Positions 1,836 through 19,093 are shown, numbered from the stretch's first letter. The stretch is DNA of 64,000 bases from Escherichia coli (GCF_003019035.1 NZ_CP027447.1); one strand, 5' to 3'. Notes: generated from the letters alone by a model not told the origin. Made by a program: numbers and translations.

Positions 1836-3353
1836 TCATCCTTCGTTATGCATTTCGAGATTTTCCACTTCGTTCTGACGTTGCACTGCTTTGGCGTCGT
1901 CATTACGTAACGTATCGAGGAAATCGAGGTAGCCCTGATCAACATCTTTGGTGACGTAGACGCCGTTGAATACCGAGCATTCAAACTGCTGGATATCCGG
2001 GTTTTCAGCGCGAACGGCTTCGATCAGATCGTTCAGATCCTGGAAAATCAACCCGTCAGCACCGATGATCTGGCGAATTTCATCTACTTCGCGACCGTGA
2101 GCGATCAGTTCCGTGGCGCTCGGCATATCAATACCATAAACGTTCGGGAAGCGAATTTCCGGTGCCGCAGAAGCGAGGTACACTTTCTTCGCTCCGGCTT
2201 CGCGTGCCATCTCGATAATCTGCTCAGAAGTGGTGCCACGGACGATGGAGTCGTCGACCAGCAGGACGTTTTTATCGCGGAACTCGGCGCGGTTGGCGTT
2301 CAGTTTACGGCGCACGGACTTACGACGCAGCTGCTGACCCGGCATGATGAAGGTGCGGCCAACATAGCGGTTTTTAACGAAGCCCTGGCGGTACGGTTTG
2401 CCCAGAATACGCGCAATTTCCAGCGCGATATCACACGAGGTTTCCGGGATCGGGATCACCACGTCGATATCCAGATCTTCCCATTCGCGGGCAATTTTCT
2501 CGCCCAGTTTGGTGCCCATATTCACGCGCGCGCTGTAAACGGAAATTTTGTCGATGAACGAGTCCGGGCGAGCAAAGTATACATACTCAAACAGGCACGG
2601 ATTGCTGACCGGATTGTCAGCACATTGACGGGTAAACAACTGCCCTTCTTCAGTGATGTAAATCGCTTCGCCAGGCGCGACGTCACGCAGGAAATCAAAG
2701 CCCAGCGTATCGAGCGCAACGCTTTCGGAAGCGACCATATATTCTGTGCGGTTCTCGTCAATATCACGTTTTCCCAGTACCAGCGGACGAATCCCGTTAG
2801 GATCGCGGAAAGCAACCATACCGTGGCCGATAATCATCGCCACGCAGGCATACGCGCCGCGGATTAAGCGGTTTGTGGCAGCAATGGCAGCGAAAATATT
2901 GTCGGCTTCCAGCGGGTAGTGGCGGAAGTTGTCCAGCTCGCTGGCGAAGATATTAAGCAGAATCTCCGAGTCGGAAGTGGTGTTGATGTGGCGGCGTTTT
3001 TCTTCAAACAGTTTTTTACGCAACTCGTGAGCGTTGGTCAGATTGCCGTTGTGGGCAAGCGTAATGCCATACGGAGAGTTAACGTAAAACGGCTGCGCTT
3101 CAGAGGCGCTGGAGCTACCAGCCGTAGGGTAACGCACATGACCAATGCCCATATTGCCCTGCAAACGCTGCATATGGCGAGCTTCAAATACATCGCTCAC
3201 CAGCCCGTTCGCTTTACGCAAACGGAAGCAGTTATTGGCATCAATGGTGATGATGCCGGCGGCATCCTGACCGCGATGCTGAAGCACCGTTAAGGCATCA
3301 TAAATCGACTGGTTAACCGGCATAACACCGGCGATACCGACAATACCGCACAT
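1836..3353 (-). CDS. purF: Amidophosphoribosyltransferase
   Basis: 505-aa ORF starting MCGIVGI (N-terminal nucleophile Cys), PRTase motif. Confidence 0.95.
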
Positions 3354-10964: not shown

Positions 10965-11122
10965 TCTAAGGCTCCTTTATTAACAAACGCCCATTTGCAA
11001 ACTGCTGTTTAATCTGAAAAAACATTCATAATCATACAGATAACAACATAACCATTTAGACGGGCAATACTGAAAAATTGTTATTCAGTATCGCCCTTTA
11101 AGCCGTTTCAGGCTATATAAAA

Positions 11123-12142
11123 TTAATCCCCCGTGGACACTGCGTGGACACTCACGCCACCTTTCAGCGGATTAAGGGCCACCGCATCCTGCAGGTAATC
11201 CGGTGCAAAATGTGCATATGCCATTGTTTGCTGAATGGTTGCGTGGCCAAGAATCTTCTGAAGCGCAATAATGTTTCCTCCGTTCATCACAAAATGGCTG
11301 GCGAACGTATGCCGCAGCACATGTGCAGCTTGGCCTTTTGGCAAATCGGGCTTAACTCTTTTCAGCGCCAGGCAGAATTCCCGGTACTTCACCTCAAACA
11401 AGCCGCCTGTTTCTCTGGTTTTGATCGCCTCACAAACTGCCTGCGAAATTGGCACTGTTCTCTTTCGGCCATTTTTGGTTTCAAGAAACGTTACACGGTT
11501 ATGAACTATCTGTTCACCACGAAGCTTACAAGCTTCACTCCAGCGCGCCCCCGTGCTTAAACACAAAAGCGCAACACGCCAGTAATCGCCCTCCAGTGTA
11601 TCGAGCAATAGCGCCACTTCCTTCTGGGACAGGAAAGCCATTTCTCGTGGAGATACATAAAGAATAGAAATTCCCCTTACCGGATGTTCTGCATCCCAGA
11701 GGCCTATTTTCTTCAGTATGGTAAACATTCCGGATAACCGATTCATGTATCTGTTAGCAGATGACGGTTTCAATCCATCAGCTATCTTTTGAGAACGCCA
11801 CGCGATAATTTTTAGCTTATCAAGATCCACAGCCTGCATATCAGCGCCAAGCTCATTGATTATGTTGCGCAGTTGTTTTCGGTCTTCTTCCGCCTTACGC
11901 CTGTGCTGGCCGTGATACATCCACCACAACTCAAGCAAATCATTTAGCGTTCGACGATCACGGTAGCCCTGTATATATTCCCGCTTTTCAGCGTTCGCCA
12001 TGATGTAGCGTTCAGTGGCCACCGCTACCGATTTTTTGTCAAATACCTTACGCACGCGCTTTCCCTTGCGTCCGTTCGGCCTGATGTCCAGCAAATAACG
12101 ACCATCTTCGAGCTTCTTAATCGACATTGCGAAGCCCTCCAA
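11123..12142 (-). CDS. int: Phage integrase (tyrosine recombinase, P2 Int-like)
   Basis: 339 aa; C-terminal catalytic HxxR ... Y motif (HVLRHTFAS ... MAYAHF); adjacent to att core. Confidence 0.9.
   Translation of the reverse strand: MEGFAMSIKKLEDGRYLLDIRPNGRKGKRVRKVFDKKSVAVATERYIMANAEKREYIQGYRDRRTLNDLLELWWMYHGQHRRKAEEDRKQLRNIINELGADMQAVDLDKLKIIAWRSQKIADGLKPSSANRYMNRLSGMFTILKKIGLWDAEHPVRGISILYVSPREMAFLSQKEVALLLDTLEGDYWRVALLCLSTGARWSEACKLRGEQIVHNRVTFLETKNGRKRTVPISQAVCEAIKTRETGGLFEVKYREFCLALKRVKPDLPKGQAAHVLRHTFASHFVMNGGNIIALQKILGHATIQQTMAYAHFAPDYLQDAVALNPLKGGVSVHAVSTGD
11138..11150. repeat. attL core (CACTGCGTGGACA), inside the last codons of int
   Basis: exact 13-bp repeat (17/18 with flank) also at 46825-46837. 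Confidence 0.5.
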
Positions 12143-12223
12143 TGAACCGCTCTACAATTTCTCCAGCCTCTTTCCAGCAATAATCAGACCAGACAAAAAG
12201 CAGGTCTAACCAGTTTTCTGGCC

Positions 12224-12544
12224 TCAGCGGGATAATTTTTGGATTGTTTCGGTTGAAACACGATCTCCCTCCGAATTGCAGGAACCATCAAGAGAGAGAG
12301 CCGGAGAAATTTGCCCAACCTCCGGCATCGTTTCATCTGTTGATAACCAATAAGCATATTTCTTAAATTTAGGGTGTTTAGTAACCTTAAGTAAGGCACC
12401 CTCTGTTACTTGCTTCCCCCTCACCTCATAGTTAGTTACCGTCCCATAAGGCAGCCCAACACAATCCGCAAACTCCTGGCGGGTCATACCTTCTGCTTCA
12501 CGAATCAGGCGAAATTTTTCACCCATGCTTGACAAAGATGCCAT
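12224..12544 (-). CDS. P2 C-type immunity repressor (HTH)
   Basis: HTH MTRQEFADCVGLPYGTVTNYE and C-terminal KYAYWLSTDE...GQISPALS resemble P2 C; start taken at MASLSS (extended ORF runs to 12598). Confidence 0.8.
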   Translation of the reverse strand: MASLSSMGEKFRLIREAEGMTRQEFADCVGLPYGTVTNYEVRGKQVTEGALLKVTKHPKFKKYAYWLSTDETMPEVGQISPALSLDGSCNSEGDRVSTETIQKLSR

Positions 12545-12657
12545 ATCGGGCATATCCTCCATCGCAACATGCCACATCGGGCATAAACATAAAAACACTC
12601 AAATAAGCCGATATAAGCCATTTTGAGCCATTCGAACGAATTAGGGAGATTACCACA

Positions 12658-12945
12658 ATGAGCGAATCAGAGCTTGGGGGCTTCATTCAGGTAGCACCAT
12701 ATCCACTTGAAGCGGTGCCATATCAACTATTCGCCAAGATGATCGGCCGCAAGGAATCCACAGTCAGAACCATGATTGACGCAGCAAAGCTACCGACAAT
12801 TGACTTTGTGAAACCAGGTTCAGTAAAGACGCGTGCATCAGAAAACTGGGTATATCTGCCAGCATTTAACGAAGGCATGCGCAAAGCGTTTTTTGAGCAA
12901 CCGAAAGAACGCCGCGATGCATGGTTGTTGTGGCTGGGGCTTTAG
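12658..12945 (+). CDS. cox: Cox-like excisionase / transcriptional switch protein
   Basis: 95 aa, divergent from repressor; WVYLPAFN ... WLLWLGL resembles P2 Cox. Confidence 0.8.
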   Translation: MSESELGGFIQVAPYPLEAVPYQLFAKMIGRKESTVRTMIDAAKLPTIDFVKPGSVKTRASENWVYLPAFNEGMRKAFFEQPKERRDAWLLWLGL

Positions 12946-12951
12946 CCATAA

Positions 12952-13158
12952 ATGACCAGCCATATCATCAGCGCCATTCTGACCCTTGTTTTTATTGAGA
13001 CAGACGTAATAGCGATCTATTTGTTTCGTAAGTTAACGGGACATGAAGAACGCTTTATTGAACTCAGCATTAAATATATCGCCGCTTATACCAAAGGGCT
13101 TTTCCCGGCAGCTATTGGGGCGATGTTTATAGTGTTTGTTATCTGGTTTATCGGGTGA
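12952..13158 (+). CDS. Hypothetical small membrane protein (early region)
   Basis: 68-aa ORF with two hydrophobic segments; position after cox. Confidence 0.4.
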   Translation: MTSHIISAILTLVFIETDVIAIYLFRKLTGHEERFIELSIKYIAAYTKGLFPAAIGAMFIVFVIWFIG

Positions 13159-13410
13159 GAAACCTGATAAACCACAACTACTGCAATGAGGGTAATTATG
13201 TGTGGCATGGACAAATTGGACCTTATGTTAATTGTAATACTATCAATTAACTTCGGTTACCTCTTAAGCGGCGTAATTCTCATGTGCGGAGGCAAACGAA
13301 AATGAACCAGCAGTCCGCAAAACGTGAAAACAATGCGATGCGATTTAATCGCAAATATTTTGAGTTTGGCCGCTATGCCGGAATAATTAAATCTGTACAG
13401 AGTCTTTAAC

Positions 13411-13752
13411 ATGAAACAGCAACGTAATTCACGCTTTCGTAATGGTGCTGAACGTCACGCTAACCGTTTCGCTACCAGTGCATCACGCAACAACATTCGC
13501 TACAGCCTGAGTGATACACACGCAACGCCGGATGGCTACCCAGTAAAACAAATCGGCGAGCATGCCTGGCTAATTGAGAAAGCTGGAATCGTGGTCCACA
13601 AATGCCCACGCAATCCGTTTACTGGAAACCGCATTTTTGCTCTAAGCAGCGGCGACAATCAGTTCGGGCAGGATTTCACATTATACGAAGCACTACGCAC
13701 GGTTGATCGTCTGCTTCGCGGACAAAGTTTTATTAAACAGGCTGATTTATAA
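13411..13752 (+). CDS. Hypothetical protein (early region)
   Basis: 113-aa ORF in early operon, same strand. Confidence 0.45.
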   Translation: MKQQRNSRFRNGAERHANRFATSASRNNIRYSLSDTHATPDGYPVKQIGEHAWLIEKAGIVVHKCPRNPFTGNRIFALSSGDNQFGQDFTLYEALRTVDRLLRGQSFIKQADL

Positions 13753-13762
13753 CAGGTGCTTT

Positions 13763-14050
13763 ATGACCAAAGACCATGCACAAGGTGTATTTATCCGTTT
13801 TATTGATTTTCGCGGTGAACTGTTATTACGCGCATCCGCTATTGATGGAGTGGCTCCGGCGGGTAAAAACGGAGCCGACGAAGCCACTTACGTTTATCTG
13901 AACGGCACGCGACTGCTTGTGGAACTTCCGTACCAGACCGTACGAGAAATCATTAGCAAAGCTGAAAAAGCGCGCCAGGCTAATGGCAATGAACCCTATA
14001 TCGAAATTATTTGCATGGATTCAGAAGCTAAAATTCAGAAAGCAGATTAA
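13763..14050 (+). CDS. Hypothetical protein (early region)
   Basis: 95-aa ORF (MTKDHAQG...) with upstream AGGTG. Confidence 0.45.
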   Translation: MTKDHAQGVFIRFIDFRGELLLRASAIDGVAPAGKNGADEATYVYLNGTRLLVELPYQTVREIISKAEKARQANGNEPYIEIICMDSEAKIQKAD

Positions 14051-14061
14051 AGGGTGTTGCA

Positions 14062-14304
14062 ATGGACAAAGAATATAAAACACTCATCAACAAAGCACTT
14101 GAGCGTTTTTATTTTCGCTTAAGTGCATCAGGCGCTCATGCTGAACGTGCAGCCCGTGACTCATTGACCAGGGCAATCCGGAGTCTGTATGACGTGGCTT
14201 TTTACGCTGATGATCTGGATGCACTTAACGAACTTTCCGAGCTAATCTGTGCCGCAGAATGCGGGGAACATATTGAACCGTATAAGCTGGGGAATATCGC
14301 ATGA
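14062..14304 (+). CDS. Hypothetical protein (early region)
   Basis: 80-aa ORF, tight spacing with neighbours. Confidence 0.45.
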   Translation: MDKEYKTLINKALERFYFRLSASGAHAERAARDSLTRAIRSLYDVAFYADDLDALNELSELICAAECGEHIEPYKLGNIA

Positions 14305-14499
14305 GTATATTTATCTCATGGCTTGTTCTGATTATTTCTGTGGCCTGCGCCATTGGGATTATGCGAATTATTCATTCAGTAAAAAAGATTGAACGCTTTT
14401 CACTGGCGAATAACAGAGCAAATAAAACCACAGGTTAAATAAGAAAATGTAAAAACAATCCGCATTCGCGGAGGTATTCGCATACGCCAAGGAGGCGTA

Positions 14500-14703
14500 A
14501 TGGCAATTAAGCATTTTCCTGTCGTTCGTTTTACCTCCAGAGGACGTGAATACGAAGTCGACGAACGCCTGATTACCACAATCGACAAACACCGTTCAGA
14601 AAAGGATGCACATCACATCTATCTCACTGACGGCACTTACTTCTGCGCCACGAATGTGGTGCAGGTGAACCTTATCCGACAGGTACAGGAGTCACGCAGA
14701 TGA
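14500..14703 (+). CDS. Hypothetical protein (early region)
   Basis: 67-aa ORF with strong AGGAGG Shine-Dalgarno. Confidence 0.5.
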   Translation: MAIKHFPVVRFTSRGREYEVDERLITTIDKHRSEKDAHHIYLTDGTYFCATNVVQVNLIRQVQESRR

Positions 14704-14945
14704 CCATTCTGGATTATATCGCTGCCAATCCGGGGTGTAGCGGTGGAGAAATCGCCGCAGCACTGAATACCCCAACCACAGCCATTAATGCGGAGTTACG
14801 CCGACTCTGGCGCAGCGGTTCAGTCATAAGAAAAGAGCGCAAAACAGGCGGTCGCTTTTCTTACCAGATAAACCCGATGCCGTTCGGGTGCGGCAATCCA
14901 CTTACCAACATGTTTAACCAGCTACTGAAGGAAGCCAGAGCATGA
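14700..14945 (+). CDS. Hypothetical protein, possible winged-helix DNA-binding
   Basis: 81-aa ORF, start overlaps previous stop (ATGA); helix-turn-helix-like segment. Confidence 0.5.
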   Translation: MTILDYIAANPGCSGGEIAAALNTPTTAINAELRRLWRSGSVIRKERKTGGRFSYQINPMPFGCGNPLTNMFNQLLKEARA

Positions 14946-15241
14946 GCGCCATCAACCACCAGGAATTACGCGAACTGGCAACTGACCTTCAACGAATGGC
15001 AACGCATCAAAAATTACTGGCGTTTCGCGCAACGCTCTCGCCGTCTGCTGTGCTGGCACTGCTGGATGAGCTGGAGCACGCCAGAACCACGGCTCCTGCC
15101 ATTCGCCTGACACTCCATCATGAAATCGCCGATTTCTGCGCGACGTTGGAGGCACCAGGCGAACCGGAAACGCCGGAAGCAATACAGCAAGAGCTGCTGC
15201 AACGCATTGACAAGGTTTTTGATTTTTTTCTGAACCAGTAA
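14942..15241 (+). CDS. Hypothetical protein (early region)
   Basis: 99-aa ORF, start overlaps previous stop. Confidence 0.5.
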   Translation: MSAINHQELRELATDLQRMATHQKLLAFRATLSPSAVLALLDELEHARTTAPAIRLTLHHEIADFCATLEAPGEPETPEAIQQELLQRIDKVFDFFLNQ

Positions 15242-15563
15242 GAAACCAGAACATGCACACACAAAAAAACCGCTTGCCATGCCGCAATCAGTCAGGTTAC
15301 ATTTCCGCTGCACCTCACAAAACGGGTGCCGGGTTTCGCAGCCTGCTGACTACACAAGCGCACAACCGCGCCAGCGGTTTTTTTGTGCGTACTGTATTGC
15401 CACGTTTTTTTCGCGTCAGAATTATGGCGGGGCGTACGGGGCCGACTTCGGTCGGGCCGGGTTCTTGTGTAGCCGGTACTGCGAACCTCGTACGTCTCGC
15501 CACCCACAGTTTCGCAGCTCTGGATGGTGAGTTTTCACAACTTACTACACAAGGGGCCACACC

Positions 15564-15794
15564 ATGGCAAACCGCAAACCACACCGCGCTATCGCGGAGC
15601 GTCGTCACATCCAGACTGAAATCAACCGCAGACTTTCCCGCGCATCACGCGTCGCGCAAATCATGCACATCAATATGCTGCATGAGCGCAGCCACGCACT
15701 ATCAAACATTTATTCCGCCTCTGTTTTCAGCTATCTGGCGGATGATCTGCACGAGCTTCAACAGCTCATCCAGCAGCAAAACAAACTCCATTAA
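15564..15794 (+). CDS. Hypothetical protein (early region)
   Basis: 76-aa basic ORF. Confidence 0.4.
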   Translation: MANRKPHRAIAERRHIQTEINRRLSRASRVAQIMHINMLHERSHALSNIYSASVFSYLADDLHELQQLIQQQNKLH

Positions 15795-15866
15795 TTCCTG
15801 TTCCGGGCCTTTCCTGCACCTTGCGGCGGGAGGCCTTCGCACATCTGTAGTAAAGAGAATTGCAGC

Positions 15867-16256
15867 ATGATTGACGCTCATGACTTCACAAGATGGGTGC
15901 GCACACAGGACACCCGTCTGGCTCCCGTTCTTCAGGGATTATTTGATCTCTACATCCGTGGTCGTGACAACAGAGCACGCACCACAAAACCAGAGAATGC
16001 AGACACCCTTTATTTCACAGTAGACGACTGCTACCGCGTGGACTTCACACCACACGGGCTGGCGTTGCACTGCCTGACACCACACGGCGAATCACTACTG
16101 GCTTATTACGACTCCCCGGCCTCCGTATTTGCGGCAATGCTGGCGCATCGCACTGCTGGCGGGTGTGCCTCGCTGAGTGAATACACCGCTGAATTTAACC
16201 GCCTTTCCACCCTCTTCTCGCAGGAGTGGCAGCGCGTGACGGGATACCAGCCATGA
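15867..16256 (+). CDS. Hypothetical protein (early region)
   Basis: 129-aa ORF, stop overlaps gpA start. Confidence 0.5.
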   Translation: MIDAHDFTRWVRTQDTRLAPVLQGLFDLYIRGRDNRARTTKPENADTLYFTVDDCYRVDFTPHGLALHCLTPHGESLLAYYDSPASVFAAMLAHRTAGGCASLSEYTAEFNRLSTLFSQEWQRVTGYQP

Positions 16257-19093
16257 GTGAGTTTGCATGGAGCTGGAATGAACCACGGCCAGCCATTGAT
16301 CCAGCCAGATTTACGGAGCACAGGCAGGAAACTGAAACCGACCTGCAACGCGCCATCCGTTACTACCTTGAGGCGGACAAAAGGGCACAGAAAGAACAGG
16401 AAGCAAAGGAAGAAGCCTTTTTCGCACAATCCGCCATGGGTAAAAAACTCATGGCATCCCATGAGGAAGCCGGACAGCGTGAAAAGCTGGCACAGAGCAT
16501 CATCAGTAAGCGCCGGGCAACAGAACAAGACCCGGTAGCCCGTGCCTTTGCCACACTGAAGGCGCTTCCCGTTTATCTGCGAGAACCTCTGAGCCGCCAC
16601 CTCTCTTTCCTGCGCAAGAAGCAGGAAGCCGATCGTCAGAAAGGCAAAAAGAGCTGGCAGGCGGAACGCTATGCACGCGGAACCCTGCGCAAAATATTCG
16701 AACGTCTGGACCGCACCGACAGCCGCTGGCTGACACCGGGTTATCGCTCTCTTGCCGGACGCGAACGCCTGGACGATTTGCTTTACCTGCCGCAGCTCAA
16801 CAAACACCAGATACAGACGCTGGCCACCATGACGGCGGCGATGTTCAGCAGCACCTTCGAAAAACTCTGCGATGGCTTTGGCGCGACTGATGGCGAACTG
16901 ACCATGGATGTAACGCTGAAGGCGTATCAGATGCTGGCCCGCATGGCGTTACACCTGCACATCATGCCTCCACATTATGACGCACTGACAACAGATAAAG
17001 ACCGGAGGAACGAACCGGACACGGAGCTGCTGCCGGGCGCAATCCTTCGCCTGACCTGTGCGGAATGGTGGAAACGCAAACTGTGGCTGTTACGTTGCGA
17101 GTGGAGAGAAGAACAACTCCGCGCCGCCTGTCTGGTTTCCAGAAAAACATCACCCTATCTGAGCCAGGACGCGTTAAGCGAGTTTCGCGCACAGCGCGAG
17201 AAAACACGCGATTTCCTGAAAAGTTTCATGCTGGAAAATGAAGACGGGTTCACGATTGATCTCGAGACGGTGTATTACGCGGGAGTAAGTAACCCGGTTC
17301 ACCGTAAGGCAGAAATGATGGCCACCATGAAGGGACTGGAACTTCTGGCCGAAGCCCGTGGCGACAGAGCGGTGTTTCTGACTGTCACCTGCCCGTCAAA
17401 ATACCACGCAACAACGGAGAACGGTCATCCGAACCCCAAATGGAACGGGGCCACCATGCGCGACTCCAGCGATTACCTGGTTAACACGTTTTTTGCGGCG
17501 GTCCGCAAAAAACTGAACCGCGACGGCCTGCGCTGGTATGGCATCCGCACGGTGGAGCCTCACCATGACGGCACCGTGCACTGGCACATGATGGTCTTTG
17601 CTCATCCAGAAGAAATCGACAGCATCGTGGCCATCACCCGCGATATTGCCATTCAGGAAGACCGCCACGAGCTGGGCAATGATATTACTCCGCGCTTTAA
17701 GGTGGAGTATGTCGACGGCTCAAAAGGCACACCAACCAGCTACATCGCCACCTACATCGGAAAGAACCTGGACAGCCGCGCCGTGGATGGCATCGACCCG
17801 AAAACGGGCAAGCCACGCGTTGACCACGAAACCGGAAAATCAATGGCCGAGAGCGTGGAACGCGCCATCGGCTGGGCGCGCCTTCACCGGGTCCGCCAGT
17901 TCCAGTTCTTTGGTATCCCCTCCCGTCAGGTGTGGCGTGAACTGCGCCGCCTTGCCAGCCAGATGGCACGCAACCCGGAAGGCCCGCAACGGCTGAAGGA
18001 TGACGCAATGGACGCGGTACTCGCTGCCGCTGATGCCGGATGTTTTGCCACCTACATTGAGAAACAGGGTGGCGTACTTGTTCCACGCAAAGACTACCTG
18101 ATTCGCACCGCCTACGACCTCGCAGATGAGCTGAACGATTACGGCGAGCAGAGTGTACAGATTTACGGGATCTGGTCGCCGCTCATCGGGGAGTCTTCCC
18201 GCGTGTGCACGCACCCGGATAACTGGAAGCTGGTAAGACGTAAACCGGAAGCGGAAGACAGCGCCCGCGAAAATGGTTTTGACCTTCAGGGCGGCCCTGC
18301 CGCCCCTTGGACTCGTGGCAATAACTGTCCCCGTGTACAGGAAACGGACAACAACGGGACAGAACAGCCGGAAGAACGGCCAGCACCGTGGCCGCAGCTC
18401 CCTGACGGCGTTGAAGTGAACGAATGGATGCGCTCACTGAAACGGCACGAACGCCGGGCGCTGATGCGTTCGCTTCGTGACAAACAGGCAAAAAACAGCA
18501 GTGATGAAATGCAGAGCTGGACACAGAGCCGCAAACAGCAGCGGCCTTTGCCTGATAACCACGAATTACTCGCTAAAGAATGGCGGGAGTCTGCTGAATC
18601 TCTCGGCCTGCATATCGGTGAACAGCAGATGCAGCACCTGTTACGGGGCGGCAGTCTGTACGTTGACGGCAGCATCATTGCACCGCAGGGATTTGAAATT
18701 GTACGCAAACCGGATACCCGACCGGACAGCCGGATCACGCAGCTCTGGCAGCGCCTGAGCCGTAACCACGGCGTAAGCAGCACGGAGATCCGCCATAACC
18801 CGGTCGCCAGCTATCTGGAACAGCTGGCGGCATCAGACCCCGAAGCCGCCGCACGCCTGGCATCCACACTTCAGCAAGACCAGAACACCATGAAAACACC
18901 CGTTACCGTGCTTTCTGACATGCTGCGCGCCATCCGCGACGCAGAGCACGCACAGAGAATCAGTGAAACCACTGAACGCGCCCGCCGCAAAGCAGACCTG
19001 CTGCGGGGTGGCCTGACCATTGGAAACAAAAAACAGACAGAAACGGGATTCACAAATCCCGTAAATGAGCAAAAAACGCGCCGCGATATATGA
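16253..19093 (+). CDS. Replication initiation endonuclease (P2 gpA-like rolling-circle initiator)
   Basis: 946 aa from MSEFAWSW; conserved HHDGTVHWHMMVF region of the phage replication endonuclease family; longer than P2 gpA (C-terminal extension). Confidence 0.85.
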   Translation: MSEFAWSWNEPRPAIDPARFTEHRQETETDLQRAIRYYLEADKRAQKEQEAKEEAFFAQSAMGKKLMASHEEAGQREKLAQSIISKRRATEQDPVARAFATLKALPVYLREPLSRHLSFLRKKQEADRQKGKKSWQAERYARGTLRKIFERLDRTDSRWLTPGYRSLAGRERLDDLLYLPQLNKHQIQTLATMTAAMFSSTFEKLCDGFGATDGELTMDVTLKAYQMLARMALHLHIMPPHYDALTTDKDRRNEPDTELLPGAILRLTCAEWWKRKLWLLRCEWREEQLRAACLVSRKTSPYLSQDALSEFRAQREKTRDFLKSFMLENEDGFTIDLETVYYAGVSNPVHRKAEMMATMKGLELLAEARGDRAVFLTVTCPSKYHATTENGHPNPKWNGATMRDSSDYLVNTFFAAVRKKLNRDGLRWYGIRTVEPHHDGTVHWHMMVFAHPEEIDSIVAITRDIAIQEDRHELGNDITPRFKVEYVDGSKGTPTSYIATYIGKNLDSRAVDGIDPKTGKPRVDHETGKSMAESVERAIGWARLHRVRQFQFFGIPSRQVWRELRRLASQMARNPEGPQRLKDDAMDAVLAAADAGCFATYIEKQGGVLVPRKDYLIRTAYDLADELNDYGEQSVQIYGIWSPLIGESSRVCTHPDNWKLVRRKPEAEDSARENGFDLQGGPAAPWTRGNNCPRVQETDNNGTEQPEERPAPWPQLPDGVEVNEWMRSLKRHERRALMRSLRDKQAKNSSDEMQSWTQSRKQQRPLPDNHELLAKEWRESAESLGLHIGEQQMQHLLRGGSLYVDGSIIAPQGFEIVRKPDTRPDSRITQLWQRLSRNHGVSSTEIRHNPVASYLEQLAASDPEAAARLASTLQQDQNTMKTPVTVLSDMLRAIRDAEHAQRISETTERARRKADLLRGGLTIGNKKQTETGFTNPVNEQKTRRDI

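Follow-up and report, generated by a model that had tools for sequence, protein, structure and literature searches.

In phages of the P2 family, the early operon has a slot between the regulatory genes cox/apl (in phage 186 also cII) and the replication genes. In phage 186 this slot holds fil and dhr, small non-essential genes for inhibitors of cell division and host replication, respectively, and in P2 it holds orf78. Small inner-membrane regulatory proteins have been characterised in Escherichia coli, among them AcrZ, MgrB, MgtS, KdpF and CydX, and the early-expressed phage exclusion proteins Imm and Sp of phage T4 are also membrane proteins. Hydrophobic microproteins under purifying selection are abundant in the Enterobacteriaceae (67,297 clusters) and protein-protein interaction is considered their main mode of action (PMC11188072). 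Described here are two short open reading frames (ORFs), ORF1 and ORF2, which encode hydrophobic peptides in the early operon of a P2-family prophage. They lie in a stretch of 64,000 nucleotides (nt) of E. coli DNA (NZ_CP027447.1), referred to below as the window. Comparison with related prophages indicates that both are very probably genuine protein-coding genes.

The prophage spans approximately 11.1–47.0 kb of the window and is inserted between pdxB and flk. Positions 12600–15300 are 100% identical to Escherichia phage PhiR44_2 and 97% identical to Xuanwuvirus P88_4B11; by these identities the prophage is a P88-like (Xuanwuvirus) member of the Peduoviridae. Both ORFs sit in the rightward early (Pe) operon, tightly packed on the same strand between cox and the replication gene A (Table 1), and the existing annotations of PhiR44_2 and P88_4B11 list both as hypothetical proteins. 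A preliminary description of the window had listed them as very small hydrophobic ORFs of the early operon. The operon map and hydropathy bear this out: each peptide has a single strongly hydrophobic segment, with a best 19-residue Kyte-Doolittle mean of 2.26 in ORF1 and 2.68 in ORF2. The position given there for ORF2 (14301–14438) was exact, and that for ORF1 (13199–13306) was one base off. Since positions 11000–17000 are overlapped by 90 ORFs of at least 25 amino acids (aa), the presence of an ORF is in itself unremarkable, and comparison with relatives is needed as a test. The preliminary description had named conservation in related phages as a check, with loss of the reading frames as the outcome that would count against them; both frames are kept and are under purifying selection, as set out below.

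ORF2 (45 aa, MSIFISWLVLIISVACAIGIMRIIHSVKKIERFSLANNRANKTTG) is the ortholog of gp07 of phage P88, annotated as a 'membrane protein' (YP_009113050.1), and is represented in RefSeq by WP_000021656.1 (37 aa). In a tblastn search, a 37-aa query composed of window residues 1–33 and the commonest tail, FTGE, matched P88 positions 2931–3041 with 100% identity over all 37 aa; the 33-residue core is therefore identical in window ORF2 and gp07. As in the window, gp07 directly follows a DUF4754 gene with a 4-nt overlap. The two differ at the C-terminus: gp07 ends in FTGE (37 aa), whereas the window ORF2, lacking one T, ends in SLANNRANKTTG (45 aa). A protein search with ORF2 returned 63 clusters, nearly all of them named Escherichia (one 'MULTISPECIES' Enterobacteriaceae) or unnamed, and the gene is present in 1339–1383 of 5426 complete E. 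coli genomes, approximately a quarter.

For DNA comparison of ORF2, the window was combined with 83 fetched related loci, giving 84 sequences of which 56 are distinct, and selection was assessed on codons 1–32, represented by 32 distinct DNA variants. The variable columns are distributed 6/5/17 over the three codon positions (chi-square p = 0.009), the ratio of nonsynonymous to synonymous variation (pN/pS) is 0.20, and internal stops occur in none of the 32 variants. Of the five other frames, four show pN/pS values of at least 1 and are interrupted by stops in nearly all variants; the remaining one, antisense and sharing third positions, has a pN/pS of 0.26 and stops in 22 of the 32. ORF2 follows DUF4754 in 89 of 89 sequences (the window and 88 loci). 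Its start had been said to overlap the preceding gene, and indeed its ATG shares the tetranucleotide ATGA with the TGA of DUF4754. Where DUF4754 has fallen to 78–79% identity, a 37-aa ORF2 with the ATGA overlap is still called, and its core is 89–100% identical. On these comparisons ORF2 is a real, strongly constrained gene, of which the window carries a C-terminal frameshift allele. A seemingly diverged homolog in Escherichia phage 503458 (NC_049341.1, 57% identity) was ruled out as a degraded, frameshifted copy; at positions 125–470 of that record the homologs of DUF4754 and ORF2 are both frameshifted or degraded, which suggests decay or assembly errors.

The frameshift lies in a run of T residues near the 3′ end of ORF2, in the context ...GAACG[C/T]TTTTTCACTG..., where the window has four T residues and its relatives five or six. 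Most relatives encode 37 aa ending in FFTGE, FFSDE or FFTEE. In the window, deletion of one nucleotide shifts the frame after residue 33, converting FTGE to SLANNRANKTTG, and translation reads through to 45 aa. The lengths of about 35 and 45 aa in the preliminary description are correct for the window, and the second is atypical of the family: 75 of the 84 sequences encode 37 aa, eight encode 45 aa and one encodes 30 aa. The protein clusters likewise fall into two main length classes with residues 1–33 in common; further variants have 30, 38, 40, 41, 50 and 51 aa. The window copy therefore departs from the canonical 37-aa length and its acidic C-terminus, with core residues 1–33 intact. The deletion is found in at least three sequence backgrounds and is therefore recurrent, and the 45-aa tails differ widely among backgrounds, as expected if this stretch is normally untranslated. 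Two explanations fit the run: a mutational hot spot within a tail that is dispensable, or a contingency site. Sequencing error in the homopolymer was ruled out for those alleles that are found on dozens of contigs. Programmed −1 frameshifting was also rejected: the 45-aa frame is +1, not −1, and the slippery heptamer U UUU UUC is confined to lineages in which CGT precedes the run.

ORF1 runs from ATG to TGA and encodes 35 aa (MCGMDKLDLMLIVILSINFGYLLSGVILMCGGKRK), with an N-terminus of the form MCGxDKxDL, a transmembrane (TM) segment in which S16, N18, F19 and G20 are invariant, and a basic C-terminal end. An in-frame ATG upstream, at 13186, is not kept in relatives, which have AAG there; the start is therefore placed at 13198. 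The segment is present in only eight of the 83 P88-like loci and in approximately 234 of the 5426 complete E. coli genomes with an identity of at least 97%. A word-indexed protein search returned only clusters at 94% identity or more, and DNA searches only copies of at least 97% identity. When 1.84 billion representatives were searched exhaustively with a HMMER profile, only the 50%-identity cluster of ORF1 itself and one spurious repeat protein were found. The provisional view after the first searches, that ORF1 has no diverged relatives, was overturned when one locus (L030) was found to have a 60%-identical 35-aa homolog at the same position (MCGLDKMDLFLIITLSVNFGVLLGLAVVMQGYKRK) and two further lineages (L111 and L113) came from a scan for which an alignment of the 68-aa protein encoded upstream served as the seed.

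All four ORF1 lineages have exactly 35 codons, begin with MCG, and keep both a GGAG-type Shine-Dalgarno sequence and the ATGA overlap with the following gene, while differing from one another at 34–35 of 108 nt (approximately 32%). The spacer on the 5′ side diverges freely between lineages; ORF1 does not. Between lineages pS is approximately 0.6 and pN approximately 0.25, with a nonsynonymous-to-synonymous rate ratio (dN/dS) of 0.23–0.34, similar to that of the neighbouring 68-aa gene (0.19–0.29). Both other forward frames contain stops in every lineage, and the antisense frame sharing third positions has a stop in the lineage of the window. When 34–35 random substitutions were simulated on 108 nt, the ORF1 frame survived in 3% of trials, and no more than one trial in 20,000 reached the observed amino-acid identity. 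Only one clade of the 68-aa gene is followed by ORF1; in other clades the next gene comes directly, and phage P88 has neither ORF1 nor the 68-aa gene. The gene was never annotated by the pipeline of NCBI (PGAP) in the RefSeq records examined. On the evidence of these alignments, ORF1 is a real, narrow, accessory orphan gene that has been omitted from RefSeq annotation. By hhalign, the ORF1 family shows no relationship to the ORF2 family.

Both peptides are likely to be single-pass proteins of the inner membrane. By the positive-inside rule, the very short N-terminus of each would lie outside and the basic tail, GGKRK in ORF1 and RIIHSVKKIERF in ORF2, in the cytoplasm. With a single TM helix, fewer than 50 aa and purifying selection, they have the features of the small-membrane-protein class. 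ORF1 keeps a mid-membrane Asn18 within S16-x-N-F-G20; in ORF2, S13, A17 and G19 are near-invariant, and substitutions elsewhere in the helix are mostly conservative (A/V/I/L/T). The pattern of invariant residues suggests specific helix-helix contacts rather than bulk hydrophobicity. Like AcrZ, MgrB, MgtS, KdpF and CydX, the two peptides are small, have a single TM helix and no enzymatic domain, and have conserved residues of small or polar type in the helix; that they bind a larger membrane protein is a proposed likeness only. They differ from this class of proteins in having no sequence relationship to them and in being phage-encoded, located in a lytic operon and without a known partner.

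The time of synthesis can be predicted from the organisation of the operon. The two ORFs share their strand with cox and A and follow a Pe-like promoter; in the P2 model, Pe is switched off by the immunity repressor C. By analogy, expression early in lytic growth rather than in the lysogen is rather likely. A consensus scan, in which a weak promoter could be missed, found no separate promoter-like site adjoining either ORF; the sole other plus-strand site (13360–13387) lies 3′ of ORF1 and approximately 900 nt 5′ of ORF2. The same scan, a weak test, found no promoter-like site on the minus strand in 12500–15300. Since silence is expected in the lysogen, proteomics of an uninduced lysogen, which had been proposed as a check, would probably miss both peptides.

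The reading favoured here, by a narrow balance of probability, is that ORF1 and ORF2 encode early lytic accessory membrane microproteins that act on a membrane partner. After infection or induction, the Pe transcript would give rise to both peptides, which would not be made in the repressed lysogen. The start of ORF2 over the stop of DUF4754, and the stop of ORF1 over the following start, could tie each to its neighbour by termination-reinitiation. Each peptide of some 35–37 aa would insert one TM helix into the inner membrane and pack in a sequence-specific manner against a partner there, as do small membrane proteins already characterised in bacteria. In ORF1 the contacts could be made by S16xxxG20 and the invariant Asn18 in mid-membrane, and in ORF2 by S13, A17 and G19 together with the amphipathic tail RIIHSVKKIERF. 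The binding of a membrane partner, as opposed to generic membrane damage, is put forward tentatively, at somewhat less than even odds. Both peptides would serve accessory early functions in the slot that fil and dhr occupy in phage 186. ORF2 probably acts jointly with DUF4754, their invariant coupling suggesting a two-protein unit. The AlphaFold2 (AF2) model of DUF4754 is a three-helix bundle (predicted local distance difference test score, pLDDT, 88.5) with no match in the PDB at E ≤0.001, and thus gave no functional lead; almost all DUF4754 homologs found in protein searches are from Escherichia. Scans of both peptides against Pfam, PHROGs, NCBIfam and PADLOC (E up to 1) gave nothing meaningful, and a literature search on Xuanwuvirus, DUF4754, both peptide sequences and WP_000021656 found nothing relevant.

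Several observations weigh against this reading. Among the homologs found for ORF1 and ORF2, none has a known function. The overall divergence of the ORF2 family is low, all members coming from Escherichia-type prophages, and recombination and hitch-hiking could inflate its apparent conservation. For ORF1, the codon-position bias alone is not significant (14/8/19, p = 0.11), and the four lineages are few and not independent. ORF1 is moreover dispensable, being absent from most P88-like phages. The promoter assignment depends on the consensus scan and the P2 paradigm, and the scan found fewer sites than in shuffled sequence (2 vs. a mean of 4.4). Finally, none of Fil, Dhr and Orf78 is hydrophobic (hydropathy of the best 19-residue segment 0.17–1.26 vs. 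2.26–2.68), and none shows similarity to ORF1 or ORF2. Since these slot proteins are not membrane proteins, the positional analogy with 186 and P2 would concern role, that of dispensable early host-directed functions, and says nothing on mechanism.

The alternatives that attribute function to the peptides, namely exclusion, a pure anchor and a toxin, are each less likely than partner binding. Superinfection exclusion, which the preliminary description had raised for small membrane peptides in this position, would have the peptides block entry of incoming phage DNA, either in the lysogen or early in lytic growth as with T4 Imm and Sp. It is in keeping with the predicted inner-membrane location, with a patchy accessory distribution typical of competition genes, and with a strongly conserved TM sequence that suggests a specific target. 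In the lysogen it is unlikely: both genes follow the Pe-like promoter on the lytic strand, the consensus scan showed no promoter-like site beside either ORF, and silence there would be expected. Exclusion during lytic growth is possible. Imm and Sp are likewise membrane proteins produced early in lytic infection, but they are larger and unrelated in sequence, and no exclusion phenotype is known for ORF1 or ORF2. Neither peptide resembles an exclusion or defence family in PHROGs, Pfam or PADLOC, and the known conversion and exclusion genes of P2, tin and old, are located elsewhere. Taken as a whole, exclusion appears unlikely.

About equally unlikely is a special case of the favoured reading, in which ORF2 is a mere membrane anchor for soluble DUF4754 and has no target of its own. 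The invariant ATGA overlap, the constant order of the two genes and the amphipathic basic helix of the cytoplasmic tail of ORF2 are consistent with it, as is the modelled structure of DUF4754, a small bundle with no obvious activity. Against it, the core of ORF2 is more conserved than DUF4754 (89–100% vs. 78–79%), which is unexpected for a passive anchor, and the extreme C-terminus of ORF2 is freely replaced by frameshifts.

The preliminary description had also suggested toxin-like factors. Small membrane toxins of the type I or holin kind would depolarise or permeabilise the inner membrane, with abortive infection, addiction or the timing of lysis as the outcome. In general terms, the size and layout of the peptides, a hydrophobic helix with a charged tail, recall Hok, TisB, Ldr and DinQ; this is resemblance only. 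Set against the type I toxins (Hok/Gef, Ldr, TisB, Ibs, ShoB and DinQ), with which they share a short chain, a hydrophobic helix and a charged end, ORF1 and ORF2 have no family match, no stand-alone locus and no detected antisense RNA or promoter. Pfam and NCBIfam scans (E up to 1) showed no toxin family, and PHROG and PADLOC comparisons no match. Both ORFs overlap a neighbour by 4 nt within a polycistronic operon rather than forming a stand-alone locus with a long leader. No promoter-like site was found on the minus strand across the region scanned, and no antitoxin RNA was found with Rfam. A holin is also disfavoured by position, in the early operon and not in a lysis cassette. A near-identical prophage in E. 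coli O145 has a separate late cassette of holin, endolysin and Rz/Rz1-like genes (annotated as holin, M15 peptidase, DUF2570 and LysC) at positions equivalent to 28.8–30.1 kb. The toxin-like suggestion thus fared poorly, and we regard it as quite improbable. A contrast within the window with a Hok/Gef gene, at the far prophage end, was considered and dropped: that gene is present in the O145 relative and absent from the window, where flk starts at 47005.

A more elaborate proposal, held to be no less doubtful, is that the 68-aa protein, ORF1 and the DUF4754-ORF2 pair form an early membrane module specific to the P88 lineage, which would shut down a host inner-membrane function through sequence-specific helix packing. 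Its targets could be a DNA-entry route or the division or transport machinery. The T-run of ORF2 would then be a contingency site that toggles the cytoplasmic tail between an acidic 4-residue and a 12-residue polar end and so changes partner binding. The weakest explanation, that these are chance ORFs in AT-rich spacer or functionless peptides whose conservation reflects DNA or RNA, could appeal to the ease with which short hydrophobic ORFs arise in T-rich sequence, to the 90 ORFs within 6 kb and to the silence of PGAP on ORF1, but is already disfavoured, and very improbable, given the frame-specific substitution patterns, the retention of length, start and stop across diverged lineages and the free divergence of the spacer before ORF1.

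The stakes are modest. ORF2 was already in RefSeq and hydrophobic microproteins are common, so that the finding is ordinary in kind; nevertheless ORF2, with its highly conserved 33-residue core, is carried by about one in four complete E. coli genomes, and the NCBI pipeline consistently leaves out ORF1, a gene under selection. What is new is the evidence of purifying selection on both, the standing of ORF1 as a conserved unannotated gene, the recognition of window ORF2 as a frameshift allele of a 37-aa protein, and the prediction of lytic, not lysogenic, expression. The two ORFs extend the catalogue of phage-encoded membrane microproteins, and their targets, if found, could show how P2-family phages manipulate the host envelope early in infection.

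Table 1. Features of the early region of the prophage, in window coordinates.
Feature	Position	Strand	Remarks
Integrase	11123–12142	−	
C-type repressor	12224–12598	−	
Pe-like early promoter, TTGACA-18-TATCCT	12529–12558	+	Upstream of cox; consensus scan; position analogous to P2 Pe; putative function
cox	12658–12945	+	
68-aa hydrophobic protein (phrog_14475)	12952–13158	+	Two hydrophobic segments; directly after cox, directly upstream of ORF1
Shine-Dalgarno sequence of ORF1, GAGGG	13188–13192	+	5 nt 5′ of start codon; diverged lineages have equivalent AAGGAG, though the remaining spacer differs
ORF1, 35 aa	13198–13305	+	
ATGA overlap, ORF1 stop/next gene start	13302–13305	+	Kept whether the next gene is the basic 35-aa ORF or DUF4761
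Basic 35-aa ORF	13302–13409	+	
DUF4761	13411–13752	+	
95-aa ORF	13763–14050	+	
DUF4754 gene, 80 aa	14062–14304	+	Pfam PF15946, E 2e-54
ATGA overlap, DUF4754 stop/ORF2 start	14301–14304	+	Kept in all 56 distinct sequences (window and 83 loci) and in 5 further loci; putative translational coupling
ORF2, 45-aa allele	14301–14438	+	Ortholog of P88 gp07
T4 run near ORF2 3′ end	14389–14392	+	T5 or T6 in relatives; DNA alignment
67-aa ORF	14500–14703	+	
MarR-like winged-helix protein, then Ead/Ea22-like protein	3′ of 67-aa ORF		
C4/isrK RNA module	Between Ead/Ea22-like gene and gene A		
Replication endonuclease gene A	16226–19093	+	

The genes that flank ORF1 are themselves small. The 68-aa protein, a third small hydrophobic early protein that the preliminary description did not list, shows 57–96% amino-acid identity across P88-like phages, with the dN/dS given above. 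The basic 35-aa ORF (MNQQSAKRENNAMRFNRKYFEFGRYAGIIKSVQSL), which shares the tetranucleotide ATGA with the ORF1 stop and is separated from DUF4761 by 1 nt, has no PGAP annotation. Diverged homologs of 48–62 aa occur in other P88-like loci and have in common the motif RF-R[KR]YF-x-x-GRY; this ORF, too, is probably a genuine small gene.

Between ORF2 and the next gene there is a hairpin, TCCGC-ATTC-GCGGA, at 14459–14472, with conserved flanks (approximately 14443–14485). It is kept even where the downstream gene has been replaced, 98.9% of cells pairing across 18 distinct variants. Two of the five pairs show compensatory changes from C-G to U-A, and two pairs have G-U or U-G wobbles that fit the plus strand only. 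Its fold has a z-score of −3.8; the plus strand lacks a U-run, and the minus strand resembles a weak terminator. The hairpin could serve in processing, stabilising or attenuating the early transcript, or it could be a palindrome to which a protein binds. Terminators are annotated at comparable positions in the early operons of phages 186 and P2.

Further downstream, at 15297–15507 on the plus strand, Rfam models identify a P1/P7-type C4 antisense RNA (RF01695, 83 bits), preceded by isrK (RF01394, 64 bits), with a weak a1/b1 target match. Both RNAs lie inside a 205-aa ORF (15253–15870) that is an annotated coding sequence (CDS) in PhiR44_2; PGAP instead calls only a 76-aa protein at approximately 15564–15794. 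The same gene in another locus (L087) has a weak match to the Pfam family 'Derepression', and P88 has a 'derepression protein' at the equivalent place. The 205-aa CDS is probably an over-call across an RNA-based immunity or antirepressor module.

At its right end, the prophage of the window stops just before flk (47005–48000). The near-identical prophage of E. coli O145 RM8988-C1 (L132, 44400–48400) has at that end an extra PIN-domain protein, Hok/Gef and a Com/Mom-like methyltransferase; the right arm beside the attachment site is therefore a region of variable cargo.

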